48,310 bases of DNA from an uncultured Planctomycetota bacterium (lineage in GTDB: Bacteria > Planctomycetota > SKW154). A program made the translations under genes and the position numbers. Positions 1 to 29,215 of the stretch are shown here, in pieces. The stretch is taken from contig CAZPBO010000005.1 in assembly GCA_964584815.1 (NCBI GenBank), forward strand, positions 10,463-58,772, read 5' to 3'. Below the pieces are notes generated by a model that made no database searches, was not told the DNA's origin, and saw only the letters and a program-made list of their open reading frames with translations. Within the stretch, counting starts at the first letter, position 1, and every line of letters starts with the position of its first letter.

Positions 1-276
1 TGCAAGGCGTGCGGATTTGAGACGATGCTCCTACCAGAATTCAGGGGGCAGAAGGTGCGCTGCCCGAAATGCGGTGCGGTGGGAGAGGTGCCAGGCGATG
101 TGGTGGAGCGTGAGGGCAAACTGCGGAGCGTGGAAAGACGCCTCCAGAAACAGCGTCCTCAACGAACCGCCGACGCAAAAATGCAGCCTCAAGCAAGCAA
201 AAAGGGGCTTGTGATGGCGATTCTGATACTCTGTGCGGGTGCTGCGGTGGCATTGTTGCTTTGGTTGGCGTTATAA
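1..276 (+). CDS. Zinc-ribbon protein with C-terminal transmembrane helix, 5' end cut by window edge
   Basis: Frame 1 is open from nt 1 (CKACGFET then MLLPEF...). CKAC at nt 1-12 pairs with the CPKC downstream to form a 4-Cys ribbon, so the ATG at 25 is probably internal. The C-terminus is hydrophobic (LVMAILILCAGAAVALLLWLAL). Stop TAA at 274-276. Confidence 0.5.
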   Translation, partial: CKACGFETMLLPEFRGQKVRCPKCGAVGEVPGDVVEREGKLRSVERRLQKQRPQRTADAKMQPQASKKGLVMAILILCAGAAVALLLWLAL

Positions 277-288
277 TTGGTCTTCATC

Positions 289-316
289 TTGATGAATGCG
301 GCAGCGGGGGTATAAT
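289..316 (+). promoter_or_regulatory. Sigma70-type promoter candidate for the five-gene operon
   Basis: -35 TTGATG at 289-294, 16-nt spacer, perfect -10 TATAAT at 311-316. It lies 24 nt upstream of the ATG at 340. Confidence 0.45.
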
Positions 317-339
317 GTGTGCGCGATTGGGGGTAGGCG

Positions 340-1461
340 ATGGCATACGCGTTTACGCCGGGATTAAGGGTTTCTGCGGCGACGCTGATAGAAAGGGAAC
401 GGGTATTGCCCTTGGACGGGGAGGTTCTGGTTGAGACGGGGCAGAAGGTCGGTGCCGAAGATGTGGTCGCCCGCACAGAGTTGCCGGGCGATGTGGAGAC
501 CGTCAATGTGGTCGGGCGTCTTGCTATTGAGCCGTCAGACATCCGCCGATACATGCTCAAAAAGGAAGGAGACCCCGTCAAGGCGGGCGAACCCATCGCC
601 GAAACAAAACCTCTCATCAAATGGTTCAAGACAGTCATAAAATCGCCTGTTGACGGCACCATTGAATCTGTCTCCGAGGTGACAGGACAGGTCCTTATCC
701 GCCTTCCTTCAAAACCGGTTGAGGTTCACGCCTACATTGATGGTGTGGTAAGCAAAACAATCCCAAAACAGGGCTGTGTGATAAGAACATACGCCACCTT
801 CATTCAGGGAATATTCGGCATAGGAAAAGAGCGTTGGGGGACGCTGCGTCTTCGTGCCGATGGTGCCGACGACACGCTAACTCCCGAGAAGATAAAGGAG
901 GATGACCGAGGCGCTATTTTGATTGCCGGAGCCCTCACCACAAAAGAGGCGATTCTTAAGGCTTTTGAATGCGGCGTTGTGGGCATAATCACAGGCGGAC
1001 TGAACGCTGTGGACATAAAAGCGGTCCTCGGCTACGATATCGGTGTTGCCATAACAGGGCACGAAGAAACGCCCACCACAATTGTGGTCACAGAGGGATT
1101 CGGCAAATTGGCAATGGCGCAGCGAACATGGGAGTTGCTTGCTCGTTGCGATACAAAGAAAGCCAGTATATCAGGTGCCACCCAAATAAGGGCGGGTGTG
1201 ATAAGACCGGAAGTGATAGTGCCGCTGGGAAAGGATGTGCCAGAAGATGCGCCGCAAAAAGAACGCGACGCTCTTAAAGAAGGAGATACTGTGCGCATAA
1301 TCCGTGCACCATATTTCGGACTGATAGGCACTGTGACGAAACTGATACCCGAACTGCAGAAAGTGGAGTCCGAAAGCCGTTTGCGCGTGCTGCAGGTCAG
1401 ACTCAAAAACGGTGAGGTGCTGACGGTGCCGCGGGCGAATGTGGAACTGGTTGAGGAGTGA
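340..1461 (+). CDS. Uncharacterised soluble protein (operon gene A) with a lipoyl/barrel-sandwich-hybrid-like hairpin and a KOW-like C-terminal segment
   Basis: 373-aa ORF with no hydrophobic helices. KAGEPIAE...SPVDGTIESV resembles the lipoyl/HlyD/RnfC-N hairpin but has no biotin/lipoyl lysine motif. The C-terminus GDTVRIIRAPYFGLIGTV...VLTVPRANVELV is KOW/SH3-like. The function call is unknown. Confidence 0.75.
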   Translation: MAYAFTPGLRVSAATLIERERVLPLDGEVLVETGQKVGAEDVVARTELPGDVETVNVVGRLAIEPSDIRRYMLKKEGDPVKAGEPIAETKPLIKWFKTVIKSPVDGTIESVSEVTGQVLIRLPSKPVEVHAYIDGVVSKTIPKQGCVIRTYATFIQGIFGIGKERWGTLRLRADGADDTLTPEKIKEDDRGAILIAGALTTKEAILKAFECGVVGIITGGLNAVDIKAVLGYDIGVAITGHEETPTTIVVTEGFGKLAMAQRTWELLARCDTKKASISGATQIRAGVIRPEVIVPLGKDVPEDAPQKERDALKEGDTVRIIRAPYFGLIGTVTKLIPELQKVESESRLRVLQVRLKNGEVLTVPRANVELVEE

Positions 1462-1465
1462 GACA

Positions 1466-4165
1466 ATGAGGCGTTTTCTCACCATTTTGGGCGTTCTGGC
1501 TGCAGGAGCGCTGCTTCTGGGACAGGGCGCTCCGCCGCAGCCCAAATATTTCCGCGCCGAAGATTACCCAAACGACAGCGGCGGCAAAATCCTCCTCGTC
1601 TGGGGCTCCTCTAACGCCGACAACCTCTCAGACCTCAAAATTGACAAAGTGTTCAACGAAAAGTTTAAGCAAGTCCTGCCAAAACTGCGTGCGCAGGCAC
1701 AAGAAGCGCTCAAGAACGCCTCCGGACCCGCCGCTGACTACCTCTTCACCCGCCTCCTCACCATTGCACGAAAAAATTTCCGCAACTCCATCGCAAAGGA
1801 AATGCGCCAAAAAGAGAAAAAACCTCCCCTCACATACATCATCCAATATTCCAAAGGCAAATCCCAACAGCGTCTTAAACTCGCGGAAGTCGCCTCAAAC
1901 GCGAATCTTCAGGGCACAAACACCGTTCTTTTCGGCAACTATCCTTGCGACCCTTACGGACATTTTCTTGTGGTTGATGTAACCGAGCAGATATGCGAGA
2001 AGGAGAAAGAGGCTTACGAGAAAGGGGTGTTGGCGACAGCGACAAAAGAGCAGATGGCGCTTGAACGGTTTGAGCAGCGCGCAGACAGCCGCCAACAGGC
2101 TCTGCAAGACGCCACAGCCAAACTGGCGCTTCTTGCCTCTCTCCGATTCTTACACACACACCTTCAAAACAAATCTCCGACAGAGGAGCACGCAAAAGAC
2201 CTTCTGTGGCTGTGCGAAAAGGTTCTGAAGGCGCTTGGGGTGCCAGAGAAAGCAAAGATATTTGATATGAAGTTGGAAGGTGAAGGGGCAGGAATACGCC
2301 TTTTGCGTGCGGCTTGGAACAAGGCGTTGTCGGATGTTGTAGGCGGCGCCTATTTCCGCAGGAATTGGTATCCGCTGACGGAGCAGGTGACGGCTGCTGT
2401 GCTCCAAATCCGCCAGGATATAACCAAGCGGCGGGACCTCGCAACCAGCAACTATGATGCGCTTTCCGAACGCTTAAAAAACCTTATGGAACGCGAAAAA
2501 GCGCTTGCGGCTATCAATGCTGCCGCCCTTAAAGAGCCCGCCGCCTCCGACGCGCTCAAAACCCTCAAAGACGAAATAGAAAAAGAAAAGCAACAACTGG
2601 GTGATAAGAGCAGCGTTGAAAGGCGTCTTGCGGAATTTAAGCAACAGGAGAGGGAAGCCCAAGACGACCTCGCCCGCTTTGCGCGCGTTGTCTCATCTTT
2701 TATCAGCACATACAAAGCGTTCCTCCGCGACCTAGCGGAGAAGGCGCAGCAAATTTTCGGCAAAGTTCCGCCACCAAACGCCGACGCGCTCTATGCCGCC
2801 GCCAGCGACGACTGGGAACGCTTCGTTAGACGCCTGTCCACCTTCAGCGGCGTCTGCCACCTCCTTGATAACCAGATTATTGAGCGTCTTTCTCCGTGGT
2901 TTAAGGAAGCAAATCTGCCGCTTAAAGTGGAGTTTACCGTGCCGCAGGGCACAGAAACCGCATACACAACCACCTTAAAGAGCCTAACGGATGAGGTGAT
3001 AACGCTTGAGAGGTTGGGCAAACTCGGCGTTATGGAGAAGTTCAAGAAGACGCTTCTGGGTGAGGCGGCGTCCTGCGCTGGTCCTTTCGGACACTGGGGG
3101 AGCAAGGACGCAAAGGGAGTGGCTGGTTCGCTTCATTTTATGGCGCTTGCGCTTGAAGAGGCGGCAAAGGGCGAGCCCGATAAGGCAGCGGTTTTCCATC
3201 AGGCGTCCAACATTCTGCGAAAACTCTGGGACGACTACTGCGAAGCACTTCGGTTGGTCAAGTTGAAGCGCAAAAAAGCGCTTGAGGACGCAACCCGCCA
3301 GACAATAACATTTTATCTCTCAATGCGCCAAGGCGAAGGCGACGCCGCCAAAACCTATTTTGTGGCTGCAGCAAAAGCACAGGCGCTGCCCAATCTCTTC
3401 CACACAGGCAAAATAACCACGCTTGTTTTAGCGCTGCTTGCCTGCGGGTTGGTCTATCTGTTCATCCGCCTTGCCCGTGGTGGAAAGGAACTGTTTATCC
3501 GCAAAATACCGGGGCTTGACGCGGTGGACGAGGCGGTGGGACGCGCCACCGAGATGGGGCGTCCCGTCTACTTCATCACAGGCTTAGGCAGTATGGACGC
3601 CCTACCTGTTATAGCCGCAATAAACATTCTGGGGCGCATCGCAAGGAAAACCGCCGAACACGACACCCGCCTCCGTATGCCCTGCTACGACCCCATTGTG
3701 ATGAGCGTTGCGCAGGAGGTGGTGAAGGAGGCGGCGACAGCGGTCGGACGCCCCGACACCTTCCGCAAAGATGACATATTCTTCGTGGCGCAGGAGCAGT
3801 TCGCCTATGCCGCCGCCGTTGACGGAATGTTCGTCCGCGAAAAACCCGCCACCATCTTCTATATGGGTATGTTCTATGCCGAATCGCTGCTTCTGGCGGA
3901 AACCGGCGCTACCGTCGGCGCTATACAAATTGCCGGCACCGACTCCTACTCACAACTTCCCTTCTTTATCACCGCCTGCGACTACACCCTTATCGGTGAG
4001 GAACTATACGCCGCCAGCGCATACCTCTCCCGTGAGCCCGTCCTGCTGGGCTCCCTCCGTGGGCAGGACACTATGAAAGGTCTTATTATGCTGGCGATAC
4101 TTCTGGGATTTGTGCTGTCTTTGTTCGGAGTGGATATAATCAGGCTGCTGTTTGTGGAAGGATAA
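1466..4165 (+). CDS. Uncharacterised exported coiled-coil protein with a C-terminal two-TM-bracketed cytoplasmic domain (operon gene B)
   Basis: ATG at 1466 is preceded by GAGGAG at 1454-1459 and lies 4 nt after the gene A stop. Signal-peptide-like MRRFLTILGVLAAGALLLGQG. A long charged helical region follows. TM ITTLVLALLACGLVYLFI, then the conserved-looking DAVDEAVGRATEMGRPVYFITGLG... domain, then a terminal TM GLIMLAILLGFVLSLFGV. Confidence 0.8.
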   Translation: MRRFLTILGVLAAGALLLGQGAPPQPKYFRAEDYPNDSGGKILLVWGSSNADNLSDLKIDKVFNEKFKQVLPKLRAQAQEALKNASGPAADYLFTRLLTIARKNFRNSIAKEMRQKEKKPPLTYIIQYSKGKSQQRLKLAEVASNANLQGTNTVLFGNYPCDPYGHFLVVDVTEQICEKEKEAYEKGVLATATKEQMALERFEQRADSRQQALQDATAKLALLASLRFLHTHLQNKSPTEEHAKDLLWLCEKVLKALGVPEKAKIFDMKLEGEGAGIRLLRAAWNKALSDVVGGAYFRRNWYPLTEQVTAAVLQIRQDITKRRDLATSNYDALSERLKNLMEREKALAAINAAALKEPAASDALKTLKDEIEKEKQQLGDKSSVERRLAEFKQQEREAQDDLARFARVVSSFISTYKAFLRDLAEKAQQIFGKVPPPNADALYAAASDDWERFVRRLSTFSGVCHLLDNQIIERLSPWFKEANLPLKVEFTVPQGTETAYTTTLKSLTDEVITLERLGKLGVMEKFKKTLLGEAASCAGPFGHWGSKDAKGVAGSLHFMALALEEAAKGEPDKAAVFHQASNILRKLWDDYCEALRLVKLKRKKALEDATRQTITFYLSMRQGEGDAAKTYFVAAAKAQALPNLFHTGKITTLVLALLACGLVYLFIRLARGGKELFIRKIPGLDAVDEAVGRATEMGRPVYFITGLGSMDALPVIAAINILGRIARKTAEHDTRLRMPCYDPIVMSVAQEVVKEAATAVGRPDTFRKDDIFFVAQEQFAYAAAVDGMFVREKPATIFYMGMFYAESLLLAETGATVGAIQIAGTDSYSQLPFFITACDYTLIGEELYAASAYLSREPVLLGSLRGQDTMKGLIMLAILLGFVLSLFGVDIIRLLFVEG

Positions 4166-4176
4166 GGAGTTAAGCC

Positions 4177-4815
4177 ATGATATTCTGGAAGCGAACGCTT
4201 CCGCTTGCGATTGCGTTCTGCTTTGGTGTTCTGATGCTGGTGATTTATTTTGTGCCGCATCAGATATCGCGCACGATTGAGGACCAGATGTCACGCTGGG
4301 GGCAGATAATCAGCGCTTTCGCGCTGGTTGTGGGACTGGCGAGTCTGCTCAACATGCACATAACGCGCATAAGACGCCGCGTTGCCGGATGGGGCTACAG
4401 CGCCGTGACCATCACCGCCCTTGTCGTCTATACTGTGCTTGGCTTTATCTCGGCAGGGTCAGCAAAGAGCGACACGCTTTTCGGCTGGGGCTACAACTGG
4501 GTCTATGTGCCGCTTATGTCAACGATGTTTTCTGTTCTTGCGTTTTTCATAGCGTCGGCGGCATATAGGGCATTCCGCGCAAGAAGTGTTGAGGCATCTA
4601 TCCTGCTTGTTGTGGCGGTGGTGGTGATGCTGGAGCGTGTGCCGCTTGGCGCATACATAACCGACGCCATTCCACAAACAGCCCAGTTCATTATGCAGAT
4701 ACCGAATATGGCTGCACGACGCGCCATATTTATCGGCATCGCCTTGGGCGTTGTGGCAACATCACTGCGCATAATTTTGGGCATTGAACGCGCCTACCTT
4801 GGAGGAGGCGACTGA
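4177..4815 (+). CDS. Uncharacterised polytopic membrane protein, about 6 TM (operon gene C)
   Basis: 212-aa ORF with AAGGAG at 4164-4169 upstream. Hydrophobic helices run throughout. No recognisable transporter motif. Confidence 0.75.
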   Translation: MIFWKRTLPLAIAFCFGVLMLVIYFVPHQISRTIEDQMSRWGQIISAFALVVGLASLLNMHITRIRRRVAGWGYSAVTITALVVYTVLGFISAGSAKSDTLFGWGYNWVYVPLMSTMFSVLAFFIASAAYRAFRARSVEASILLVVAVVVMLERVPLGAYITDAIPQTAQFIMQIPNMAARRAIFIGIALGVVATSLRIILGIERAYLGGGD

Positions 4816-5654
4816 TGAGTGTGCTTGAGAAGATGATGAACATAGACAGGCGGATAATATTTGTCTTCGTCGCCGCCGCTATCGTCATACCCTCCATTGT
4901 GCGGCTCAACCTTCCGATAAAGCCGTCCCCGATGGTTGTCGCCTACTACAAGGCGATTGAGTCGCTGCCTGCAGGTTCGGTCGTTCTGGTTTCAAGCGAC
5001 TATGACCCCGGCTCAAAGGCGGAACTGTTGCCGATGACTTTGGCGACATTCCGTCACTGTTTCAGCCGCGACTTAAAAGTCATAGGAATGGGGTTGTGGC
5101 CGCAGGGCATTGACTTAACATATGAGGTATTGCGTCAGGCGGCAAAGGAGTATGGCAAAAAGGAGGGCGAGGACTTTGTGATGTGCGGCTACAAAGCGGG
5201 TGCGGCGTTCGTCATCGTCGGTCTGGGGCAGGACCTTCCGGGAACGCTGGAGAAGGATGTGCGCGGACGCGACCTGAAATCGCTGCCTCTGTTCAGAAAG
5301 CACAAAATTCGCAGTCTGCGCGACATACCGCTTGTGGTCTCTATGTCGGCAGGCAACCCAGGCATTGACACCTGGATAGTTTACGGGCGTGACCAGTTCG
5401 GTTTCCGTATGATAGGCGGCTGCACAGGCGTTATGGCACCCGACTTCTACCCCTATCTCAACACGGGACAGTTGGAGGGTCTGCTGGGGGCGGCAAAGGG
5501 TGCCGCCGATTATGAAACGCTCATCAAACGACCCGGGCTTGCCTGCAGAATGATGGACCCCCAAACCGTTGCGCACCTTGTCATAATAGTCTTTATCGTC
5601 ATCGGCAATATCGCCTTACTTTCTTCCATTATCCGTCGTAGGAGGAAAGCCTAA
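4815..5654 (+). CDS. Uncharacterised membrane protein: N-terminal TM, about 210-aa external domain, C-terminal TM (operon gene D)
   Basis: The ATG overlaps the gene C stop (TGATG at 4813-4817), with GGAGGAGG at 4801-4808. DRR precedes TM1. A second TM is followed by an RRRRKA tail, giving a consistent N-in/C-in topology. Confidence 0.75.
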   Translation: MSVLEKMMNIDRRIIFVFVAAAIVIPSIVRLNLPIKPSPMVVAYYKAIESLPAGSVVLVSSDYDPGSKAELLPMTLATFRHCFSRDLKVIGMGLWPQGIDLTYEVLRQAAKEYGKKEGEDFVMCGYKAGAAFVIVGLGQDLPGTLEKDVRGRDLKSLPLFRKHKIRSLRDIPLVVSMSAGNPGIDTWIVYGRDQFGFRMIGGCTGVMAPDFYPYLNTGQLEGLLGAAKGAADYETLIKRPGLACRMMDPQTVAHLVIIVFIVIGNIALLSSIIRRRRKA

Positions 5655-6397
5655 TGCGTGGCTCAACCATAGCAGCGCTCTGCATTGTGGCGCTTTTTGC
5701 AGTTGTGAACATATATCTTGTCGCCGCAGGCGTTCTGCCCGCCGACAGCCAGGGGCTCGGCATCATCATTGCAGCAGGTCTGACCCTTGCTATATACTCC
5801 TTCCTTTACAAGGACAACCCGTTCTATCGCTTCGCAGAGCATCTGTATGTCGGCATCGGTATGGGGTATATAATCATCCGCAGTTATTATGATGTGATAA
5901 AGCCGAAAGTCATTGACGCTCTTTTCTCACCACCTGTAGGCGAATCACCGTCATTGCTTGTCATACCACCGCTTTTCTTCGGCATTCTGCTGTTCTCACG
6001 CTTCTTCCCGCGTCAAGCGTGGATATCGCGCTGGTCGTTCGCCTTCTTTGTCGGGATGGGGTCAGGTCTTGCCATTCCGCGGACCGTCAAATCGCTGATT
6101 ATGCGTCAGGTTGAAGCCACAATCCGCCCTGTGCAGTTCTTCAGTCCCATTGGCGATTTCAACTGGATGGCGCTCGCAACTATTATCGCCATCATCGGCG
6201 TCTTCTGCGTTCTTGTCTACTTCTTCTTCTCCATAGAGCATCGTGGTCCGCTACGCAACATAAGCAAAGTCGGTGTCTGGTTTTTGATGATTGCATTTGG
6301 TGCCGCTTTCGGCTACACCGTTATGGGGCGTATCTCGCTCCTCATTGAGCGTGTTCAGTTCCTCCTGACAGACTGGCTACACATAACTATGAGGTAG
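5654..6397 (+). CDS. Uncharacterised polytopic membrane protein, about 7 TM (operon gene E)
   Basis: The ATG overlaps the gene D stop (TAATG at 5652-5656), with AGGAGGA upstream. 247 aa, almost entirely hydrophobic helices. Confidence 0.75.
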   Translation: MRGSTIAALCIVALFAVVNIYLVAAGVLPADSQGLGIIIAAGLTLAIYSFLYKDNPFYRFAEHLYVGIGMGYIIIRSYYDVIKPKVIDALFSPPVGESPSLLVIPPLFFGILLFSRFFPRQAWISRWSFAFFVGMGSGLAIPRTVKSLIMRQVEATIRPVQFFSPIGDFNWMALATIIAIIGVFCVLVYFFFSIEHRGPLRNISKVGVWFLMIAFGAAFGYTVMGRISLLIERVQFLLTDWLHITMR

Positions 6398-6401
6398 AGA
6401 C

Positions 6402-6653
6402 ATGGAAAAAGATGCCTCCCATCCACTTGAAGGGTTTGAGGAGCGTTACACTCGTCTTGAGCAGTTGGTCAACGAACTGGAGGCGGGCAATCTACCTCTT
6501 GGCGAGATGCTGAAACGGTTTGAGGAAGCGGTTCGTCTCCTTAAAGAATGCGACGAGATGCTTAAAACCGCAGAGGAGCGTGTGGAGTTGCTCACAAAGA
6601 ACCTGCAGGGCGAGATTACAGGCTCAACGCCCTATGAGGTTGAGGATGAATGA
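6402..6653 (+). CDS. xseB: Exodeoxyribonuclease VII small subunit
   Basis: 83 aa with LEQLVNELEAGNLPLGEMLKRFEEAVRLLKECDEML, typical of XseB. It sits in the classical position directly upstream of ispA. Confidence 0.85.
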   Translation: MEKDASHPLEGFEERYTRLEQLVNELEAGNLPLGEMLKRFEEAVRLLKECDEMLKTAEERVELLTKNLQGEITGSTPYEVEDE

Positions 6654-7531
6654 CCAAATTAAAAGAGTTTCTGCAAGAGCGCAGACAGGTCGTTGAAGGT
6701 GTTTTGCAGCGTTATGCTCCATCAGAGGACCGTTTTCCACCGCTGATACACAAAGCGATGCGTTACAGTCTGTTTTCGGGCGGCAAGCGTTTGCGTCCGA
6801 TACTGGTGCTGGAGTGCTGTCGTATCTGCGGTGGCAGCGAGGAGGAGGCGTTTCCCGCCGCCGCCGCTGTGGAGTTCATTCACACCTACTCCTTAATTCA
6901 CGATGACCTCCCGGCGATGGACGACGACGATTTCCGCCGCGGTAAACCAACCTGCCACAAAGTCTTCGGGGAAGCGGTGGCGATTCTGGCAGGTGATGGA
7001 CTGCTCACACTTGCTTTTGAGGCGTTGAGCCGTATTAGGGATGGGGTTGTCTGTAAGAAAGCGGTGGCGGAGTTGGCGCGTGCGGCTGGCTCCGCCGGTA
7101 TGGTCGGCGGACAGACCCTTGATATAACTCCGCCTGCTCCTGATGAGCCGCACACAGAACGCGTCTATCTGACCCATCTCCTAAAAACTGCGGCGATGAT
7201 TGAGGTCTCCTGCCGACTCGGCGCAATCTGCGCAAAAGCCCCTCAAAACGCCCTCAATGCCGTCTCCTCATACGGTCGCAACCTCGGTCTTGCCTTTCAG
7301 ATAACAGACGACATTCTTGATGTGGTCGGCGAGGAGGAGAAGGTGGGTAAGAGGCTGAAGAAGGACACCGAGAAAGGGCGTCTGACATATCCGTCGGTTT
7401 TCGGGCTTGAGGAATCGCTTTCGGAGGCGCGGCGTCTGGTGAGCGAGGCGAAAGCGGCGCTCAACATATTCGCAGAGAAAGCCGACAACCTATGTGCCCT
7501 CGCCGACTTTATCCTAACGCGAACACATTAG
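6650..7531 (+). CDS. ispA: Polyprenyl (farnesyl/geranylgeranyl) diphosphate synthase
   Basis: First Asp-rich motif LIHDDLPAMDDDDFRRGKPT and second motif FQITDDILD. ATGA overlap with xseB. Confidence 0.9.
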   Translation: MTKLKEFLQERRQVVEGVLQRYAPSEDRFPPLIHKAMRYSLFSGGKRLRPILVLECCRICGGSEEEAFPAAAAVEFIHTYSLIHDDLPAMDDDDFRRGKPTCHKVFGEAVAILAGDGLLTLAFEALSRIRDGVVCKKAVAELARAAGSAGMVGGQTLDITPPAPDEPHTERVYLTHLLKTAAMIEVSCRLGAICAKAPQNALNAVSSYGRNLGLAFQITDDILDVVGEEEKVGKRLKKDTEKGRLTYPSVFGLEESLSEARRLVSEAKAALNIFAEKADNLCALADFILTRTH

Positions 7532-7541
7532 GAGAAGCGCT

Positions 7542-8042
7542 TTGAGATTTGCCGACCTTGTTGAGGAGTTGGCTCTCATAAAGGATGCGGACATAAGGCA
7601 GAAGGTAGCGGCGGTCTGGGACAGAGCCCTTTCAGAGCACAACATAAGCGCGGAGGAGTTGAGGAAACTGCCGTTCTGCGGTGAGGTGCCTGTGGAGCGG
7701 GCGAGTTTGCTGACGCATCTGCGTGCGGTGGCACGCACAGCCGCACACCTCGCCGACCTCTACGAAGAGGCATACAGCGTGGCGGTGGACAAAGATGCGC
7801 TTGTGGCGGCGGCGCTACTGCACGATGTTGGCAAACTTGATGAACGAAAAGAAGCGCTGCTTGAGCATTCGCTATCATCGGTTTTGAGAGCGGCAAGGGA
7901 GGGGCTGCCCGATAAAGTCCTCCACGCCATAGCGTTCCACTCCGAAAGCGCTGCTTCAAAGCGACGCTGCCCCGAAGCGGAACTCCTTTACTTCGCGGAT
8001 TTTGCCCATTACAGACCTCTTCTGGAGAGCGGCAATGGATAA
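7542..8042 (+). CDS. HD-domain protein
   Basis: TTG start 7 nt after AGGAG at 7530-7534. AALLHDVGK motif (HD metal-dependent phosphohydrolase superfamily). Confidence 0.65.
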   Translation: MRFADLVEELALIKDADIRQKVAAVWDRALSEHNISAEELRKLPFCGEVPVERASLLTHLRAVARTAAHLADLYEEAYSVAVDKDALVAAALLHDVGKLDERKEALLEHSLSSVLRAAREGLPDKVLHAIAFHSESAASKRRCPEAELLYFADFAHYRPLLESGNG

Positions 8043-8577
8043 AAGAAAACGCCTTCTTGAGTTGCTGCGCGAAAAAGCGGTTCTCAAAGGGCGGTTTGTT
8101 CTGGCAAGCGGGAAGGTGAGCGACAGGTATGTGGACTGTCGGCGGGTGACACTGGACCCTGAAGGGGCGGAGTTGGTGGGGGAGTTGGTGTTCGCGGAGG
8201 TTTTGAGAAGGGGAGCGACGGCGGTGGCGGGTTTAACGATGGGAGCAGACCCGATAGTGGTGGCGACAGGTCTTGTAGCGCGCCGCAACAACTATCCCCT
8301 CAAAATGGCGATTGTGCGCAAAGAGCCGAAAAAATACGGCACCGCAGGGCAGGTTGAGGGACCACCACTGGACAGGAGCGACAGAGTAATGGTGGTGGAG
8401 GATGTGGCGACAACAGGGACATCGGCGCTGAAAGCAGCGCAGGTAATTCTGCAGCAGTTCAACTGCCAGATAGCGGCGGTGCTGGCAGTGGTTGACCGCA
8501 AAGAAGGCGCAAAAGAAAAAATCCACCGCCACGGCTTTGAGTTTATATCGCTCTTTGAGATGGAGGAGTTGCTGTGA
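8035..8577 (+). CDS. pyrE: Orotate phosphoribosyltransferase
   Basis: N-terminus MDKRKRLLELLREKAVLKGRFVLASGKVSDRYVDCR and PRPP-binding loop VMVVEDVATTGTS. The ATG at 8035 overlaps the end of the upstream gene. Confidence 0.9.
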   Translation: MDKRKRLLELLREKAVLKGRFVLASGKVSDRYVDCRRVTLDPEGAELVGELVFAEVLRRGATAVAGLTMGADPIVVATGLVARRNNYPLKMAIVRKEPKKYGTAGQVEGPPLDRSDRVMVVEDVATTGTSALKAAQVILQQFNCQIAAVLAVVDRKEGAKEKIHRHGFEFISLFEMEELL

Positions 8578-9800
8578 TGAGGACGGCGGCGATTCTTGCA
8601 AGCGGTGATGAGTTGGTTTACGGTTTCGTTGAGGAGCGCAACTCATCGTGGCTTGCGGGTAGGTTGCTTGATGTGGGGATAGAGCCTGTATTCTGCGGGG
8701 TTGTGGCGGACAATGCGGCGCTTTACGGCGAGACGCTGCACTGGGCGCTGGCGGCGACGGATGTGGTCATAACCACCGGTGGACTGGGTCCAACCGTTGA
8801 CGACTTGACGCGTCAGGTCGTCGCAAGAGTCACAGGAAAACGCCTCATAAGCGTCAGCGAAGCAGAACAGCACATAAGAGATGTCCTTCAGAAGTTGGGT
8901 GTTCCCGTAAGAGAAAGCGAGTTGAGGCAGGCGCTGATACCAGAAGGCGCCACACCCATCCACAACCGCTACGGCACCGCCTGCGGTTTCGCGTTGCAGG
9001 TTGGCAAAACCCATCTTTTCTGCTTATCGGGTGTGCCGCAGGAGATGGAGCAGATGTTTGAGGATGGGGTGCTGCCGCTGCTTAAGGGAACAGGACGCCC
9101 GCTTTTCTGGCGGCGCTTCAACACTATGGGTCTGTCCGAATCGGAGTTGCAGGCGATAGTGCGTGGAGTTGCGCTGCCCAAAGGCGTGCGCGTCGCCTAC
9201 ACCGCAAGCGATTACCTTATTTCGCTTACGGTTTACGCCCACAACGAGAAGTTGCTTGATGAGTCGGCGGAAAAAGTGAAAAACGCAATACCGCCGAAAC
9301 GCCTGATATCAGAAGGCAAGAAAGCGCTGAACGAGGCGCTGTTTGAAGCGCTGCAGGCAAAGGGGGCTACATTTGCGGTTGCTGAATCGTTCACAGGCGG
9401 ACTTCTGCTTGACAGAATAACCGATGTAGCAGGCATTTCGGCATATCTGCGTGGAGGGGTCGTAGCCTACTCCGCCGAGGCAAAGAGCGGCGTTCTGGGC
9501 GTGGCGAAGGAGACGATAGAGAAGTTCGGCGTTTACTCGTTGGAGGTGGCGGAGGAGATGGCGCGCTGTGCGGCGAAGCGATTCGGCGCCGATTTCGCCA
9601 TCTCAACAACAGGTGTTGCAGGACCCCAACCCGCAGGACCAGGTCTGCCAGCAGGACTTGCTTTTGTTGGTGTATACGGAAACGGCACGGCAAAAGCACG
9701 GCGGTTCACGATAAGTGGACCAAGGAGGAGCGTAAAAAGCCGCGCCGCTAACATCGCACTCAACATCCTGCGCCTTGCGCTGCTTGAACCCCCAAAATGA
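8577..9800 (+). CDS. cinA: CinA-family protein (MoCF-type domain plus nicotinamide-nucleotide amidase domain)
   Basis: VVITTGGLGPTVDDLT N-domain. The C-terminal ESFTGGLL...ISTTGVAGP matches the PncC/CinA-C domain. The ATG at 8577 overlaps the pyrE stop. Confidence 0.85.
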   Translation: MRTAAILASGDELVYGFVEERNSSWLAGRLLDVGIEPVFCGVVADNAALYGETLHWALAATDVVITTGGLGPTVDDLTRQVVARVTGKRLISVSEAEQHIRDVLQKLGVPVRESELRQALIPEGATPIHNRYGTACGFALQVGKTHLFCLSGVPQEMEQMFEDGVLPLLKGTGRPLFWRRFNTMGLSESELQAIVRGVALPKGVRVAYTASDYLISLTVYAHNEKLLDESAEKVKNAIPPKRLISEGKKALNEALFEALQAKGATFAVAESFTGGLLLDRITDVAGISAYLRGGVVAYSAEAKSGVLGVAKETIEKFGVYSLEVAEEMARCAAKRFGADFAISTTGVAGPQPAGPGLPAGLAFVGVYGNGTAKARRFTISGPRRSVKSRAANIALNILRLALLEPPK

Positions 9801-9811
9801 GCCTTACCGTT

Positions 9812-9840
9812 TGACCACACACTACTTCGCTGCTATCATT
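9812..9840 (+). promoter_or_regulatory. Sigma70-type promoter candidate (extended -10) for htpX
   Basis: TTGACC at 9812-9817, 17-nt spacer ending in TGc, TATCAT at 9835-9840. AGGAGG at 9855-9860 precedes the GTG start at 9867. Confidence 0.45.
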
Positions 9841-9866
9841 CCTGATGTAAAGGCAGGAGGTATGTC

Positions 9867-10808
9867 GTGGCGCAACAAGGCGAGCGGGTTCCTTTCCATG
9901 TGCAGATAGCACGCAACAAACGCGCAACAGCCGTGCTTGTGATTTTGTTCAGCATATTGCTCGCGTTTGTGGCTTTTTGGGTGGGACTAATATTTCCGGG
10001 AGGATGGGAGGGGGGCGTTGCGGTGGCGGCGGGTGTGGGTGTCATAACATTTGCGTGGTTTTTGGCGTCCTACTACAGCGGTGGATACCTCCTGATGACG
10101 ATGCACCACGCATACCCGGCGGCGCCAACAAAGGGAGGCAGAGTCCTTTACAATGTGGTGGACGAGATGGCGATAGCGGCGGGGGTGCCGCGTCCACTTA
10201 TCTTTGTCGTTCCCACATCAGCGATGAACGCATTTGCCACAGGACGCGACCCCGAAAACTCCATTATTGCCGTCACAAAAGGTCTGCTTGACAAGTTGGA
10301 CAGGGACGAGTTGCAGGGCGTTGTGGCACACGAAATAAGCCATATCCGCAACTACGACATAAGGTTGATGATGATGGTTGCGACATTTGCGGGGATGGTG
10401 GTGATATTGAGCGAGATACTGTGGTATATGTCGCGAGTTCTGCTTCGCGCGGGGCTTTCAGGCGGCGGTAACAGGCGAGGTGGAGGGGCACCGCTGCTTC
10501 TGCTTGCGGCGGTGGCGGCTATCATATCCCTTGTCGCACCGATAATTGCGGTGCTGATTCAGTTCGCGATAAGCCGACGAAGGGAATACTTGGCGGACGC
10601 TTCAGCGGTGGAGTTGACGCGTTATCCTGAAGGTCTGGCGCGTGCTCTTGAAAAGATTGCCTTCGGCTGCCGCGGAATGAAATACGCCTCCAAAGCGGCG
10701 GCACATCTCTACATCCAGAACCCATTTATGCGTGCCTCCGCATCAAGCCTCTTCGCCACACACCCTCCTATCAGTGAACGCATCAGGAGAATAAGAGCGA
10801 TGATGTAA
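9867..10808 (+). CDS. htpX: M48-family zinc metalloprotease HtpX
   Basis: HEISHIRNYD (HExxH) motif, four hydrophobic helices, and a C-terminal THPPISERI motif. Confidence 0.9.
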   Translation: MAQQGERVPFHVQIARNKRATAVLVILFSILLAFVAFWVGLIFPGGWEGGVAVAAGVGVITFAWFLASYYSGGYLLMTMHHAYPAAPTKGGRVLYNVVDEMAIAAGVPRPLIFVVPTSAMNAFATGRDPENSIIAVTKGLLDKLDRDELQGVVAHEISHIRNYDIRLMMMVATFAGMVVILSEILWYMSRVLLRAGLSGGGNRRGGGAPLLLLAAVAAIISLVAPIIAVLIQFAISRRREYLADASAVELTRYPEGLARALEKIAFGCRGMKYASKAAAHLYIQNPFMRASASSLFATHPPISERIRRIRAMM

Positions 10809-10865
10809 AAATTTTGCACCATAAAGCGTCAACACCCGTCTAATAATGTGAGAAATCCTGTTAGG

Positions 10866-13800
10866 ATGGTCTTTATGCTTGATGAAACAGAAAAGGAGTT
10901 GTTGAAGACGGTGCTGCGTAAGGGGTTGATAGACGCCGAGACAGCGCAGTATCTGCTGGAAGAGAAAGAAAGAGACCCCAGCAAGCCGATAAGCCAGATA
11001 CTGGTTGAGCAGAACATCATAGACGAGGAGCAGTTACAAACGCTTATGGATGGTGGAACGCACAGTGAAGGAGTAACGATAGAGGAAAAAGGAACGGATA
11101 GAAACGGGGCTGTTGGGGCTGTGGCTCCTGCGACCGCACCACACGCCGCCCCATTCATCGGCAAATATAAAATAATCGGATTGCTCGGCAAGGGTGGTAT
11201 GGGCAAAGTTTATAAAGGCTTTGATGGGGAACTCCAGCGTTACGCCGCCATAAAGGTGCTGCCTGAAGAGATGGCAACTGACAAAGAGAGCCTGCAACGC
11301 TTTCTGCTGGAAGCGGAAGCCGCGGCAAAACTGTCCCATCCCAACATCGTGGCGGTCTATGAGATAGGTCGCTACAACAAAACCTACTACTTCGCGATGG
11401 AGTATGTGGACGGCACAAGTCTGACGGGATGGTTGAAGAAAAAACGCCCCAACCGCAGAAAAGTGCTGGATGTCTTCCGCAGGGTTTGCCTGGCGGTGCA
11501 TCACGCTCATTTAAGCGGGATAATCCATCGCGATATAAAACCCGCCAACATACTGATAACCAAGACAGGCGTGCCGAAAGTGGCGGACTTCGGGCTGGCG
11601 AAGCAGATAAAGGGGCAGCGCGACTCATCCCTCAAAACCCAGGACGGAACTGTGATGGGCACACCAGAATATATGGCGCCAGAGCAGGCGGCGGGAAAAA
11701 TCCACGAAATAGACATAAGAAGCGATGTATATTCTCTGGGCGTTGTTCTGTATGAGTTGATGACGGGTAGACGCCCGTTCAAAGGCTCAAACTTCTATGC
11801 GGTGATAAAACAGGTGCTGTTTGAGGAGCCGCCGCGTCCGTCCCAAATCAACCCAAAGATAGACTGGGAACTGGAAGCAATAATCTTAAAGGCGATGGCA
11901 AAGAAGAAGGAGGAGCGTTACCAAAGTGCACGGGATTTGGCAGAAGACATAGGACGATATTTGAGGGGTGAGCCGATAAGGGCGGCGCGGGCTGGCTGGT
12001 TCTACACATTCAAGAAGAAGGTGGCGCGTAACAAGCCGTTTTACGGGACGCTTTTTGGGGCGGTGGCTTTGTTTGTGGTTCTTCTTGTGTGGTTTGTGAG
12101 CGCACAAATTGAGGCGCGCAAGAAAGCCGAAGCGGCATACAGGCTGGCGGAGAAGCGGCGGAAAGAGGCGGAGAAACAGCGGCAGATAGCAGAAACCGCA
12201 AAAAGAAAGGCGGAGGCGGCATACAAGGTAGCGGAGAAGGCGCGCAAGAAAGCCGAACAGGCAAAAGATGAGTTGGAAAAGGCGCTTGTGGATATGGCTC
12301 TTGAGCGGGCGCTTTCTCTGGCGCAACAGACCCGTTGGCAGGAAGCCATAGATGCCCTAACCCGCTTGCCGAAAGCACAACAGCACCGATGGGGCGGATG
12401 GCTTATCAACTTTGCGCGCCAGAGGATGTGGCGCACCACCCAATTCCCGATGAAGGAGAACCTCTTCTGCGTTGTCAAAACCACAAACGGTTATATAGCA
12501 AGACTTGCGTGGGATAAAAGGGCGCAAGAGTTGCTGACGGTTGACCCAACAAACGGAACGATAAGAACCTTCCACACATTCAGCGCAAGACTGTATAACA
12601 AATTCGCCGCATCACCTGACGGCACCCAACTGGCTGTCGTGCTTCAGAGCGGGGAGGTGATGGCGCTTGACGCAAACGGCACACTGCTTTGGCGAACCAA
12701 AATGAAGCACCTACCGTTTACGGTATTCCACCTGGGAGACTTGATATTTACGGAGGCGCTCAGCCGCGTCTACGCCTTGGACAGCAGCAACGGGAAGATA
12801 GTGGCGACAGTAAACCTGCCGCGAGGAATGCAGGGAGTAACAAATGTGCTTTCGGTAGGACCGTATTATGTAGTTTTCTGTCAGGACAGACACGCAAGAG
12901 GGCACCTGGTGCTTGTGAACGCCGCCGATATGCATGTTGTCTGGAAACTGCCGTTAACTGGGGTGGCGTTCAATGTGGTGGCGCGCGGCAGGCGCCTCTA
13001 CTTCGCCACCTGCTCCTGCACCGTGGAAGAAATTGATATTGAAGAAAGACAGCGGATAAAATCCCTCACCTACGAAGGGGAAGCGCCATGCGGCATTGCC
13101 TTGATTGATAACTACTTAGTCGTTGTGGGATATGACGGCAGAGTCCACATCTGGGATATATCCAACTGGCAGAAAGAGACGGTGCAGCGTCTGCCGCTTC
13201 GCTTCTGCTGGGGTGCTTTCAAAGAAGGAAAAAGCGTATACGCCTACGGGGACGGCGGTCTTGCCCGCATAGAACCGCCTCTTACTCTCTGGGCGAAGAA
13301 GTTACACATAACATCCACAAAACGGTCCGCTTTTGGGCGTGTTCATAGTGTTGCCATGACTGCGACCACCATAATTATGGGGGTATCGGACGCCACACTG
13401 CGCGGGATAACTTACGACGGCAGAGAGTTGTGGAGCGTTCCACGGGTTGCCGACCCTTCAACTATGGATGTGGCTATGGCGCTTGCTGTGGCGCCGAACG
13501 GCGACATATTTACCGTCAGTGGCTTGGGGAAGGTGAGCCGCTGGAGTCCCACGACCAGAAAGCATATATGGCTCAATGAGCAGCCTGCCGGCAGGCTAGG
13601 ACCTGGTAAACTGTGGTTGAGTGGCAACACACTAATCGTCGCAAAAGGCGACACAGTTGCGTTTCTCAATGCTCAAACGGGGCGGGTTCTGGCGAGGCAA
13701 CCGCTTGGCGCCTTTATCTTTGGAGGCGGTCCCCTTCCCAACGGCTCTGTTGTCGCCATCACTTACCAAAAGGGAGCCTTCATAGTGACCCAAAACGGCG

Positions 13801-14177
13801 CCACCCCCCTGCCACAGGTGCCCGGGGCAAATCGTGCCGAACTCAACGCCGACGGAACACTGTTGGCTGTCGCCCAGCGCGGCGGAAAACTGCTGCTCTT
13901 TGAGACCAAAAATTGGAAGAAACTGTGGGAACATCAGTTCATAGAACCCCCCTATGGAATCGCATTTCTCCCTTCAAACGACATCGTCGTCACGACAAGG
14001 TCTGGAAAGGTGGTGCTTTTGAGCAGGGAAAAAGGCGATAAAAGTTTCTACCTGCAGCGACTGCCGGGTGGCGCTTATTACAAGGTCAGCACAAGTCCCA
14101 ACGGAAAGGTTGTCGTCCTTTACTCCACTTTTATGGGTGAGATTTGGATTTTGCACATTCCGCCGCTACCACGCTGA
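10866..14177 (+). CDS. Membrane-spanning Ser/Thr protein kinase with T2SS-E-N-like N-terminal module and C-terminal beta-propeller region
   Basis: Kinase motifs GKGGMGKVYK, AIK, HRDIKPANIL, DFG and APE. TM FGAVALFVVLLVWFVSAQ. A charged KKAEAAY repeat region is followed by about 600 aa of beta-rich repeats (PQQ/WD40-like). The start is uncertain (GTG 10848, ATG 10866 or ATG 10875). Confidence 0.9.
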   Translation: MVFMLDETEKELLKTVLRKGLIDAETAQYLLEEKERDPSKPISQILVEQNIIDEEQLQTLMDGGTHSEGVTIEEKGTDRNGAVGAVAPATAPHAAPFIGKYKIIGLLGKGGMGKVYKGFDGELQRYAAIKVLPEEMATDKESLQRFLLEAEAAAKLSHPNIVAVYEIGRYNKTYYFAMEYVDGTSLTGWLKKKRPNRRKVLDVFRRVCLAVHHAHLSGIIHRDIKPANILITKTGVPKVADFGLAKQIKGQRDSSLKTQDGTVMGTPEYMAPEQAAGKIHEIDIRSDVYSLGVVLYELMTGRRPFKGSNFYAVIKQVLFEEPPRPSQINPKIDWELEAIILKAMAKKKEERYQSARDLAEDIGRYLRGEPIRAARAGWFYTFKKKVARNKPFYGTLFGAVALFVVLLVWFVSAQIEARKKAEAAYRLAEKRRKEAEKQRQIAETAKRKAEAAYKVAEKARKKAEQAKDELEKALVDMALERALSLAQQTRWQEAIDALTRLPKAQQHRWGGWLINFARQRMWRTTQFPMKENLFCVVKTTNGYIARLAWDKRAQELLTVDPTNGTIRTFHTFSARLYNKFAASPDGTQLAVVLQSGEVMALDANGTLLWRTKMKHLPFTVFHLGDLIFTEALSRVYALDSSNGKIVATVNLPRGMQGVTNVLSVGPYYVVFCQDRHARGHLVLVNAADMHVVWKLPLTGVAFNVVARGRRLYFATCSCTVEEIDIEERQRIKSLTYEGEAPCGIALIDNYLVVVGYDGRVHIWDISNWQKETVQRLPLRFCWGAFKEGKSVYAYGDGGLARIEPPLTLWAKKLHITSTKRSAFGRVHSVAMTATTIIMGVSDATLRGITYDGRELWSVPRVADPSTMDVAMALAVAPNGDIFTVSGLGKVSRWSPTTRKHIWLNEQPAGRLGPGKLWLSGNTLIVAKGDTVAFLNAQTGRVLARQPLGAFIFGGGPLPNGSVVAITYQKGAFIVTQNGATPLPQVPGANRAELNADGTLLAVAQRGGKLLLFETKNWKKLWEHQFIEPPYGIAFLPSNDIVVTTRSGKVVLLSREKGDKSFYLQRLPGGAYYKVSTSPNGKVVVLYSTFMGEIWILHIPPLPR

Positions 14178-15327
14178 CAACACCGTCCTCATCATTCACA
14201 CCAACTACACAAACCCGCTCAAACCCTACCGCCTTCGTTCCCAGAAACCTTGCCCGCACATATCGCTCAAGCATCCCAAGCCCGTTCCTTTCTGGAATGA
14301 AACTCTCATAAAGACCGACAAGGCAACGCCTGTAGGCAGCCGCTGCGGCGTCTGAAACCTTCTTAAGGACAGCAAAACGCTCTTTCACCAGATTTGGGGG
14401 AAGCGGTGGCAACTGGGCTGCAGGTGTTCTGGGACGCGCACTATAAGGAAATATGTGAACGCGGCTGAATCCTGCGTTCTCAACCAGAGAAAGCGTTTTT
14501 TCAAAGTCGGCGTCCGTTTCTGTGGGGTATCCCACGATAATGTCGGTGGTTATTGCAGGTTTTGTGCGGGTTTTGCGCAGGCGCTCAACAAGGCGCATAA
14601 AGTCAGCTGCGCTGTATGGACGGCGCATATGCGAAAGCACAGCGTCAGAGCCCGACTGCAACGGAAGATGGAAATGGGCGCAGACAGAGTCGCATTCATC
14701 TATCGCCTCAAGCAATGCGTCATCCACAAAGTGGGGCTCAAGGCTTGAGAGGCGGATGCGGGGAAATAGCCGCTCTTTATCAAGGCGGCGCAGCAAATCC
14801 GCAAGACTTGAGTCTATGTCGCGACCGTATGCGGCGAGGTTGACCCCCACAAGCACAACCTCCTTAAAACCCGCCGCAGCAATGGACTCCGCCTCCGTCA
14901 AAACATCATCAATCCTGCGACTCCGCAACCGACCCCGAACACGGCAGACGACACAATAAGAGCAGGCAGAAGGGCAACCATCGCAGACTTTCAGAAGAGC
15001 GCGACTGCGGCTCTCAAAGTTTGGGACAACCCTGATACGGGAAAGCAACTCCATTTTGGCTGCGTTGTCAACTGCCACAATCCGCTCATGCCTGAACATA
15101 TCCGGACGAAGTGTGACAAGGCAGCCTGCGACGACGACGGTGGCGCTGGGGTGGTGGCGCAGGAGGCGTCGCAGCGCCTTGCGGCTCTTCCGCTCCGCCT
15201 CCCCAGTCACGCAGCAGGTCAGAAGCAACGCCCACTCCCCGCGTATCTTCTCATAATGCTTCTTGAGAGCCTGCAACTCATATTGGTTCACTTTGCAGCC
15301 TATGCTGACAGCCGCCACAACTCCCAT
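14131..15327 (-). CDS. mtaB: Radical-SAM methylthiotransferase, MtaB-like
   Basis: N-terminal MTTase motif GCKVNQYE. Radical-SAM cluster CPSACSYC (CxxxCxxC). Confidence 0.75.
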   Translation of the reverse strand: MGVVAAVSIGCKVNQYELQALKKHYEKIRGEWALLLTCCVTGEAERKSRKALRRLLRHHPSATVVVAGCLVTLRPDMFRHERIVAVDNAAKMELLSRIRVVPNFESRSRALLKVCDGCPSACSYCVVCRVRGRLRSRRIDDVLTEAESIAAAGFKEVVLVGVNLAAYGRDIDSSLADLLRRLDKERLFPRIRLSSLEPHFVDDALLEAIDECDSVCAHFHLPLQSGSDAVLSHMRRPYSAADFMRLVERLRKTRTKPAITTDIIVGYPTETDADFEKTLSLVENAGFSRVHIFPYSARPRTPAAQLPPLPPNLVKERFAVLKKVSDAAAAAYRRCLVGLYESFIPERNGLGMLERYVRARFLGTKAVGFERVCVVGVNDEDGVVSVVAAECAKSKSHP

Positions 15328-15337
15328 ATCCCGCGCC

Positions 15338-28728: not shown

Positions 28729-29215
28729 CCACCCGCACCCCCTTCACATACCCCTGCCCCGCCTCATCGTAGAAGAAATCAGTCCTGTCTATCTGCTTGA
28801 TGTAAAGACCGTAACGGCTCTGCTCCACCGCCCGCATAAAGTCCACCATCTTGCCCCACTCAAGGGTCTGAGGTGAGCGGAAAATTATAACACCGCGCTT
28901 TCGGTCAGGGGTTATGGTGAATGGCGCTTCCTCCCCCACATAGCGGCGCCACACACGCCTCACAAAACTGGAGAGCATCCGCTCCTCCTGTTGGTCGGTT
29001 TTGCGCAAGGAGCCGAGATACGGCTTGTTTGCGGGGTCCTTAAGCATGGCGCGCAGACGCTCAAATGCGCGCATCTCCCTCCGCAACGCGCTCTGAGCAT
29101 GAGCGTCTCGGGTGTAGAAAACGACTACGAGCACCCCCATCACACCTGTTGCAATAGCCATCAACAGAACGAACAAAGCGCCCGCACTTATGCCACCTTC
29201 CTCATTTTCTGCCAC
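28709..29215 (-). CDS. Bitopic membrane protein, GspM/PilO-like by position and topology
   Basis: 168 aa with TM ALFVLLMAIATGVMGVLVVVF, then a helix and an alpha/beta domain. It is the last gene of the GspK-L cluster. The family call is tentative. Confidence 0.5.
   Translation of the reverse strand: MAENEEGGISAGALFVLLMAIATGVMGVLVVVFYTRDAHAQSALRREMRAFERLRAMLKDPANKPYLGSLRKTDQQEERMLSSFVRRVWRRYVGEEAPFTITPDRKRGVIIFRSPQTLEWGKMVDFMRAVEQSRYGLYIKQIDRTDFFYDEAGQGYVKGVRVVIGLPH

Follow-up and report, generated by a model that had tools for sequence, protein, structure and literature searches.

A conserved four-gene cassette built around DUF6754, with a predicted inner-membrane complex as its product, in Planctomycetota and other bacterial phyla

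The stretch of DNA considered here (hereafter, the window) comprises 48,310 nucleotides of contig CAZPBO010000005.1 (assembly GCA_964584815.1, positions 10,463 to 58,772 of the forward strand) from an uncultured Planctomycetota bacterium of the SKW154 lineage, and contains, close to its beginning, five consecutive genes, denoted A to E, whose products are named "hypothetical protein" in the public records. Four of these genes, B, C, D and E, make up a conserved, self-contained cassette that is found across at least a dozen bacterial phyla, and their products are predicted to form a single inner-membrane complex of approximately 15–17 transmembrane (TM) helices, with two from B, six from C, two from D, and five to seven from E. 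The initial annotation of this DNA had proposed a five-gene unit encoding an inner-membrane assembly with no recognizable function, and both the conservation of B-C-D-E and the absence of a known family for C, D and E agree with this, whereas A, which is found directly 5' of only 19 of the 87 copies of B (approximately 22%), is not part of the unit. The five genes, and the two main parts of B, are arranged as follows.

340 to 1461, forward strand: gene A, open reading frame (ORF) of 373 amino acids (aa)
1466 to 4165, forward strand: gene B, ORF of 899 aa
1526 to 3385, forward strand: ectodomain of B, with an FN3-like start and end, split by a helical insertion
3392 to 4141, forward strand: DUF6754 (PF20539) region of B, aa 643–892, a profile match
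4177 to 4815, forward strand: gene C, ORF of 212 aa
4815 to 5654, forward strand: gene D, ORF of 279 aa
5654 to 6397, forward strand: gene E, ORF of 247 aa

The ORFs, gaps, overlaps, and GGAG sites that were first described at this locus are all confirmed. Each of the five ORFs is a real gene, with homologues in other phyla at 40–65% identity. A gap of 4 nucleotides (nt), with GAGGAG upstream, separates A from B, which also has an alternative in-frame ATG at 1439, and a gap of 11 nt, with a GGAG, separates B from C. The C-D and D-E junctions are stop/start overlaps (TGATG at 4813 and TAATG at 5652, respectively), each of which has a GGAGGA ahead of it. This tight packing had been taken as a sign that the proteins belong to one complex, for which it is, by itself, weak evidence, given that the packing extends past E into unrelated housekeeping genes. 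The evidence that B to E are one system is found, rather, in the retention of their order and in the natural fusions among them.

The homologues of B were sought using the DUF6754 domain alone as the query, ORFs were called on 85 loci with iterated hidden Markov models, the ordinary homologues of C, D and E were collected from these loci, and the gene tables of four distant carriers were examined. Gene order was counted in the 86 copies of B with at least 2.3 kb of downstream DNA, and in 81 of them, B is followed by C, D and E, in that order and on the same strand, as it is in the window itself. In the four distant carriers, the DUF6754 gene precedes unannotated genes of about 210, 275, and 220 aa. 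This order is kept in the Planctomycetota, Poribacteria, Nitrospirota, Methylomirabilis, Elusimicrobia, Zixibacteria, WOR-3, and Ignavibacteria, among others, and the genes that flank the cassette are wholly different from phylum to phylum, which indicates that B-C-D-E is a self-contained module. Natural fusion proteins join C to D (P0125) and D to E (P0350, P0356, and P0366). The persistence of the order across phyla with entirely different flanks, together with these fusions, leaves little room for the idea that the five genes are unrelated and packed tightly by chance in a compact genome, as the continuation of the same spacing into xseB, ispA, cinA, and other genes might suggest. This explanation is barely credible, being refuted for B to E, and retaining some weight only for A.

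The DUF6754 domain is represented by more than 8000 strong matches, in at least 596 species-representative genomes. The carriers include the Planctomycetota (Phycisphaerae and the anammox Scalindua/Brocadiaceae), Poribacteria, Eisenbacteria, WOR-3, Zixibacteria, and Nitrospirota, together with Methylomirabilis, Ignavibacteria, Elusimicrobia, Latescibacteria, and some Desulfuromonadaceae and Myxococcales. The D family alone includes 3167 representative clusters (50% identity, E <= 1e-3). Identity across phyla is approximately 57–68% in the DUF6754 domain, 42–54% in C, 35–47% in D, and 38–50% in E. Many genomes contain two or three complete cassettes in tandem, which suggests that one machine has been diversified for different partners or substrates. 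Three cassettes were observed at each of the loci L056, L062, L071, L081, and L082, and two at each of L003, L007, L017, L039, and L045; in the arrays that include A, this gene lies directly 5' of one cassette, usually the first (L003, L007, L017, and L062). No paralogy was detectable by hhalign between the B domain and D, or between C and E, and a search with Rfam of the DNA that precedes the cassettes revealed neither a riboswitch nor a leader RNA. A number of neighbors recur, such as the outer-membrane protein-accA-era genes after A, prfA, the PPDK gene after the arrays of the Ignavibacteria and Zixibacteria, and aroK/aroB with a sulfatase around the cassettes of the Poribacteria, although they were rejected as hints of function, as all of them represent lineage-specific housekeeping synteny.

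Protein B is bitopic. A signal or anchor sequence comes before its periplasmic ectodomain, from which a TM helix leads to the cytoplasmic DUF6754 domain, and a further TM helix comes last. The suspicion, in the initial annotation, that its cytoplasmic part belongs to a Pfam family known only as a domain of unknown function was correct: aa 643–892 match DUF6754 with E 4.4e-117 and 390.2 bits, against a cut-off of 27, over positions 4–253 of the 257 in the profile. This region consists of a TM helix (aa ~647–672), an alpha/beta domain that resembles the Rossmann and universal stress protein (USP) folds, an invariant CDYTLIGEELY stretch, and the C-terminal TM helix (aa ~864–886). With the signal sequence and the FN3 module ahead of the TM helix at aa ~647–672, and basic residues directly after it, DUF6754 is placed in the cytoplasm. 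A typical B protein has only 380–420 aa, in which a signal sequence and a single FN3 domain are followed by DUF6754, with one TM helix on either side of it. The exported, helical region of some 600 aa that had been described in the B of the window is present, although it represents an insertion inside an FN3-like module. The start (aa 21–60) and the end (~aa 589–640) of this module are kept, with a helical insertion of approximately 450–530 aa between them, and the profile of the ordinary proteins of 380–420 aa aligns to the B of the window at aa 21–135 and 589–895. The insertion is thus specific to the lineage.

The AlphaFold2 model of the B domain has a mean predicted local distance difference test (pLDDT) score of 65, with a confident Rossmann/USP-like core. 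Cys199 and Asp200 (fragment numbering) are invariant in 90 sequences. In the search by fold, no match to the B domain reached E 1e-3, and the weak likeness to USPs (2z09 and 5ahw) has a probability of 0.93–0.99, but E >= 0.017.

Protein C has six clean TM segments by hydropathy, in agreement with the number first assigned to it, and its positive-inside pattern indicates that both the N- and the C-terminus face the cytoplasm, which in turn places the loop at aa 92–108, between TM3 and TM4, in the periplasm. In other lineages, inserts of 300–400 aa occupy this loop, some of them composed of FG-GAP/VCBS repeats or a coiled coil. Examples of the members of the C family that bear these inserts include P0132–P0134 and P0145, among others, and many of the inserts have no match in Pfam. 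A conserved cytoplasmic motif, AAYRAFRAR, follows TM4. Protein E, to which approximately seven TM helices had been assigned, is polytopic, with between five and seven TM helices by hydropathy, and has a conserved KDNPFYxFAEH loop.

The AlphaFold2 model of protein D (pLDDT 96.6, predicted template modeling score 0.91) includes a first TM helix at aa 12–29, a six-stranded, Rossmann-like domain at aa 39–245, a long second TM helix at aa 247–278, and a basic cytoplasmic tail. This model and the termini agree with the layout of a TM helix, an external domain of approximately 210 aa, a second TM helix, and a basic tail that had been read from the sequence. The C-D fusion and the ends of D (DRR...RRRRK) indicate that both termini are cytoplasmic, and that the domain of approximately 200 aa is, therefore, periplasmic. 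The conserved Asp11 falls within the cytoplasmic DRR motif, and the conserved His254 and Asn265 of the second TM helix are the sole conserved polar residues within the helix. The members of this family frequently have inserts of 50–550 aa at a single site, at profile position ~110–115, including CARDB and HEAT repeats; P0254, P0276, P0268, and P0307 are examples. The structural matches recovered by Foldseek are generic Rossmann folds, GT-B half-domains, short-chain dehydrogenases/reductases, USPs, and LOG-like folds, with a query-normalized TM-score of no more than 0.36.

When the alignments of B and D are compared with the secondary structure of the models, the near-invariant residues of both Rossmann domains are located at, or immediately after, the C-terminal ends of beta-strands, which is the usual position of a ligand pocket. 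The complex is thus predicted to carry a Rossmann-like domain of the ligand-pocket type on each face of the membrane, that of B in the cytoplasm and that of D in the periplasm, while B, C and D appear to carry periplasmic binding modules that vary among lineages, such as FN3, FG-GAP, CARDB, and HEAT, or, as here, a long helical insert.

Proteins C, D and E have no match in Pfam or NCBIfam, and when the 31–34 members of each family were scanned singly, only scattered, sub-threshold noise was found. The profiles of all five families, compared with the sequences of the PDB, returned nothing significant, except for FN3 in the N-termini of other B proteins. The initial claim that the five proteins lack a Walker A, HExxH, or transporter signature stands: neither these two motifs nor CxxC is found in any of them, and the ABC, MFS, RND, Sec, Tat, and other curated transporter profiles gave no match beyond the sub-threshold noise of TM bundles. 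No column has a cysteine in at least 50% of the sequences in A, C, D, or E. PADLOC returned no match for A to E, or for the two proteins (M605 and s121) encoded upstream of A in other genomes, and membership of a defense system was rejected. In the literature library that was searched, no paper mentioning DUF6754 or PF20539 was found, nor was there anything for PF13941, TIGR01319, or "GlmL family". Two findings had been named beforehand as ones that would count against an undescribed system, a confident family match for C, D, or E, and a lack of conserved synteny; no such match was obtained, and the order of the genes is conserved, as described above.

Protein A has no TM segment by hydropathy and is soluble, as first annotated, although it is not featureless, and includes a barrel-sandwich-hybrid domain (aa 56–118), an alpha/beta region at its center, and, at aa 314–343, a C-terminus that is KOW/SH3-like. 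Its homologues are 46–52% identical across phyla. The Biotin_lipoyl and HlyD_3 profiles of Pfam match A at scores barely over their cut-offs (22.3 against 22.1 for Biotin_lipoyl), and those of RnfC_N (19.0 against 25.6 bits) and NQRA_N (17.8 against 25) fall below them; at E <= 0.1, however, RnfC_N matches 14 of the 18 members of the A family, and NQRA_N six. A role as a lipoyl or biotinyl carrier was considered and rejected, as the candidate residue, Lys90, is a lysine in only 10 of the 18 members.

In approximately 18 of the 20 genome loci that bear A, the gene order is s121-M605-A-B-C-D-E. The product of M605, directly 5' of A, is a protein of some 600 aa with a full-length match to the Pfam family MutL/GlmL (PF13941; E 1e-129) and an additional C-terminal domain of approximately 120 aa. 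It is 62–68% identical across phyla, scores below all three of the GlmL cut-offs of NCBIfam (230 against 475, 216 against 600, and 169 against 204), and had no solved relative in a sequence-profile search of the PDB. Proteins of the GlmL ("glutamate mutase") family are members of the actin/ASKHA superfamily (PMC5597319). The s121 gene encodes an unannotated protein of approximately 110–140 aa. A search of metagenomes from A recovered at least 590 loci, and in the best 80 of these, which were analyzed, M605 lies 5' of A in 51, and B-C-D-E lies 3' of A in only about 31, which indicates that the tightest partner of A is the GlmL-like ATPase. Several long contigs contain s121-M605-A, or A alone, with no cassette, among housekeeping neighbors (outer-membrane protein, accA, era, and prfA). 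The link between A and the cassette is thus frequent, rather than obligatory, and A belongs to a separate cytoplasmic module, as a facultative partner of B-C-D-E. No homologue of M605 or s121 is encoded anywhere in the window, and a related locus, L001, also has A with B-C-D-E, and neither M605 nor s121 within 10 kb upstream.

The s121-M605-A trio was observed at L025:4149-7493, L073:3998-7383, and L070:3918-7402, and at approximately 50 metagenome loci (L089, L102, L130, and L164, for example). It also occurs in the absence of both B-C-D-E and genes of B12 mutases, and looks like an uncharacterized module in its own right. In the loci of the Eisenbacteria type, s121-M605-A, with or without the cassette, sits between gcvT, gcvH, gcvPA, and gcvPB and the lipoate-protein ligase gene lplA, a setting that is found at L003:1-4130 and 15105-15911, and also at L007, L017, L135, L136, L160, and L164, with gcvPB being directly 5' of s121 in loci without B-C-D-E as well. 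This setting may reflect either a functional link or the synteny of the lineage. The cassettes adjacent to A were considered as a possible distinct subtype of DUF6754, which was rejected, since there is only a partial enrichment by clade, and no clean split.

A number of known systems resemble parts of this one. B is a full-length, high-scoring member of the DUF6754 family, which is itself an entry in a sequence catalogue alone, and neither Pfam nor NCBIfam has any family for its three partners. M605 shares the full-length PF13941 match with the GlmL/MutL proteins of the coenzyme-B12 mutases (PF13941; NF040745, NF040744, and TIGR01319), but no genes of B12 mutases adjoin it, and it is not encoded in the window. 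The likeness of A to NqrA and RnfC lies in its barrel-sandwich-hybrid domain and in its place as the soluble partner of a membrane complex, whereas A has neither Fe-S nor flavin motifs, is facultative, and accompanies membrane subunits that are unrelated to those of Rnf or Nqr. With the B and D domains as queries, Foldseek ranked single Rossmann halves from enzymes of the OtsA/TreT type, USPs, and LOG-like proteins highest, and only the generic fold is held in common, with TM-scores of 0.2–0.36 when normalized by the query, and of no more than 0.52 by the short USP targets, identity of 8–18%, and one match below E 1e-3; the two domains are, moreover, predicted to lie on opposite sides of the membrane, where no GT-B cleft would be possible. 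The MotAB, ExbBD-TonB, TolQR-A, and GldLM systems are also multi-subunit assemblies of the inner membrane, with a subunit that reaches into the periplasm and no ATPase of their own, although this analogy is conceptual only, as the membrane subunits of the cassette match no MotA_ExbB or ExbD/TolR profile, the sole MotA_ExbB match being one of 15 bits in the soluble A, and the TM helices of D contain no acidic residue that is conserved.

The preferred reading of these data, considered to have somewhat less than an even chance, is that B, C, D and E make up a single inner-membrane complex, with a Rossmann domain on each face, which passes a ligand to the envelope. The complex would be, at a guess, a transmembrane device for translocation or coupling that serves a ligand directed to the envelope. 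In this case, the very highly conserved cytoplasmic pocket of B, where an invariant Cys-Asp is found and acidic residues sit at the C-terminal edges of strands, would be the site of loading or processing, the helical core of C and E may act as the conduit for the ligand, and the periplasmic pocket of D would receive it, while the role of the variable periplasmic modules would be to set the position of the machine with respect to its partners in the envelope. Protein A may dock on the complex as a facultative adaptor on its cytoplasmic side, and the GlmL-like ATPase, together with s121, might energize or regulate it in most of the lineages that bear A. The most far-reaching form of this proposal is that the cassette encodes an ancient, previously undescribed machine of four subunits, found in hundreds of species of the PVC and FCB groups, Nitrospirota, Methylomirabilota, Elusimicrobiota, and other phyla, which couples a ligand-binding or catalytic Rossmann domain in the cytoplasm to the periplasmic one through a novel TM core, and is driven or regulated in many lineages, through A, by an actin-fold ATPase of the GlmL type. 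In this form, it is tentative, and on balance doubtful.

Several observations weigh against the translocation or coupling device. The cassette itself has no canonical energy-coupling module, no Asp or Glu is conserved in the middle of the membrane, and no outer-membrane or biosynthetic gene is conserved nearby that might indicate an envelope substrate. The label of "envelope system" is one that we infer. The physical association of the four proteins is predicted from topology and models, and any substrate or phenotype would be a guess. Some loci have A and the GlmL-like ATPase but no B-C-D-E, and what ties these two to the complex could be regulation, or no more than frequent adjacency. The most conserved part of B, residues 165–228 of the fragment (FYAES...GAIQIAGTDS...CDYTLIGEELY), is modeled with a pLDDT below 50, which may be expected if this stretch folds on partner subunits or on the ligand. 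Finally, C and E were compared with known structures by sequence profile alone, and the probability that they have a remote tie to a known superfamily of transporters or membrane proteins comes close to that of the contrary.

The same architecture might also serve signaling, with the periplasmic modules and the pocket of D sensing a cue, from the envelope or from outside, that is relayed through the TM core to the B domain, and then to A or the GlmL-like ATPase. The presence of hypervariable periplasmic decorations on an invariant core would fit such a sensor, as would the faint likeness of the B domain to the nucleotide-binding folds of the USPs, and the tandem, paralogous cassettes, which recall families of receptors. 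This is, however, unlikely, given that no output domain (kinase, cyclase, HAMP, PAS, or DNA-binding) is found in the cassette, or consistently beside it, and that four membrane subunits at a gene dosage of 1:1:1:1, with a highly conserved cytoplasmic domain, would be atypical of a sensor. A structural tether or scaffold, with no transport, in which the variable binding modules would let the inner membrane hold peptidoglycan, the outer membrane, an S-layer, or partner proteins, has a similarly low probability. Every variable module that was identified has a binding or scaffold fold, and none is an enzyme, the carriers are mostly diderm phyla that have been little studied for envelope tethering, and the helical insert in the B of the window would, in this case, be a strut that spans the periplasm. 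A passive tether would, on the other hand, have no need of a pocket-type Rossmann domain on each face of the membrane, both of them with polar residues that are near-invariant, nor of an invariant cytoplasmic Cys-Asp, and no peptidoglycan-binding domain (OmpA, LysM, or SPOR) was detected.

A remote complex of the Rnf/Nqr type, which translocates ions, with A being similar to NqrA or RnfC, and C and E to the six-TM RnfA/E subunits, is far less probable than either of these alternatives, and is largely refuted. Such a complex would account for the RnfC_N and NQRA_N matches in the A family, and for the size of C and E, which are polytopic proteins of approximately 200–250 aa, as in RnfA/E. The A of the window scores below both of the Pfam cut-offs, however, none of the 31 and 33 members of the C and E families matches an Rnf-Nqr membrane subunit, even at E 0.5, and as A, C, D and E have neither a cysteine that is conserved nor a CxxC, no Fe-S sites are left. 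In addition, A is missing from approximately 78% of the cassettes, and the barrel-sandwich-hybrid fold is common to many unrelated proteins.

Two further features flank the locus in the window.

289 to 316, forward strand: candidate sigma-70-like promoter, TTGATG-16-TATAAT, 10 of 12 positions, 24 nt before the start codon of A
6402 to 6653, forward strand: xseB (exonuclease VII small subunit), with Exonuc_VII_S in the syntenic locus L001, outside the system

The near-consensus promoter of the initial annotation exists as a site, and is the best promoter-like match within positions 1–7000, but the number of these sites in the region (six) does not exceed that in shuffled sequence (3.5 +/- 2.0), and the promoter, while plausible, lacks statistical support. 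The start of xseB is only 4 nt past the stop codon of E, and no terminator-like site was found after E. The continuation of the packing past this point, with no terminator, indicates that 6397 is not the 3' end of the operon. In the block at 6402–10808 (forward strand), xseB is followed by ispA, genes of an HD-domain protein and a phosphoribosyltransferase, cinA, and the gene of an M48 peptidase, names that were inferred from L001, with xseB to the ORF at 9867–10808 joined by 4-nt gaps or overlaps and no terminator. The DNA from 340 to approximately 10.8 kb may thus be a single long transcript in a compact genome, and the xseB-ispA pair is a lineage-specific neighbor of the cassette.

Immediately 5' of the promoter-like site, an ORF of 83 aa (25–276, forward strand) encodes a zinc-ribbon-like motif, CPKCG, and a C-terminal hydrophobic helix, and L001 has a similar zinc-ribbon ORF, of 94 aa, in the matching position (8527–8811). 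Elsewhere in the window, two genes (10848–14177 and 44352–47534, both on the forward strand) encode Ser/Thr protein kinases of approximately 1100 aa each, the first with PQQ/beta-propeller repeats at its C-terminus, and the second with a C-terminal region of approximately 740 aa that has no Pfam match at E <= 1e-5, as is also the case of an unannotated ORF of 516 aa at 29202–30752 (reverse strand). The region at 14131–18248 (reverse strand) contains a radical-SAM/UPF0004 (MiaB-like) gene, followed by T2SSF-like and T2SSE/MshEN-like genes, which are the platform and ATPase of a type IV pilus or type II secretion system, an ordinary neighborhood that is syntenic with L001.

Given its conservation, at 40–65% identity, across at least a dozen phyla, the cassette must do something important, and its carriers include organisms that are key to their environments, such as Nitrospira, the anammox Scalindua/Brocadiaceae, Methylomirabilis, and the sponge-associated Poribacteria. 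No described family includes C, D or E, and the literature that was searched is silent on the cassette, which has now become a testable target, with a defined unit (B-C-D-E), a predicted topology, two predicted pocket-bearing Rossmann domains, natural fusions, and a link to a GlmL-like ATPase. If a new machine for translocation or coupling is indeed what the cassette encodes, it would close a gap in the envelope biology of the many diderm phyla other than the Proteobacteria, with a trans-envelope transducer or translocase on the scale of Tol-Pal, TonB, or Lpt, and the actin-fold proteins of the GlmL type would gain a second role, independent of B12, beyond the reactivation of B12 mutases.

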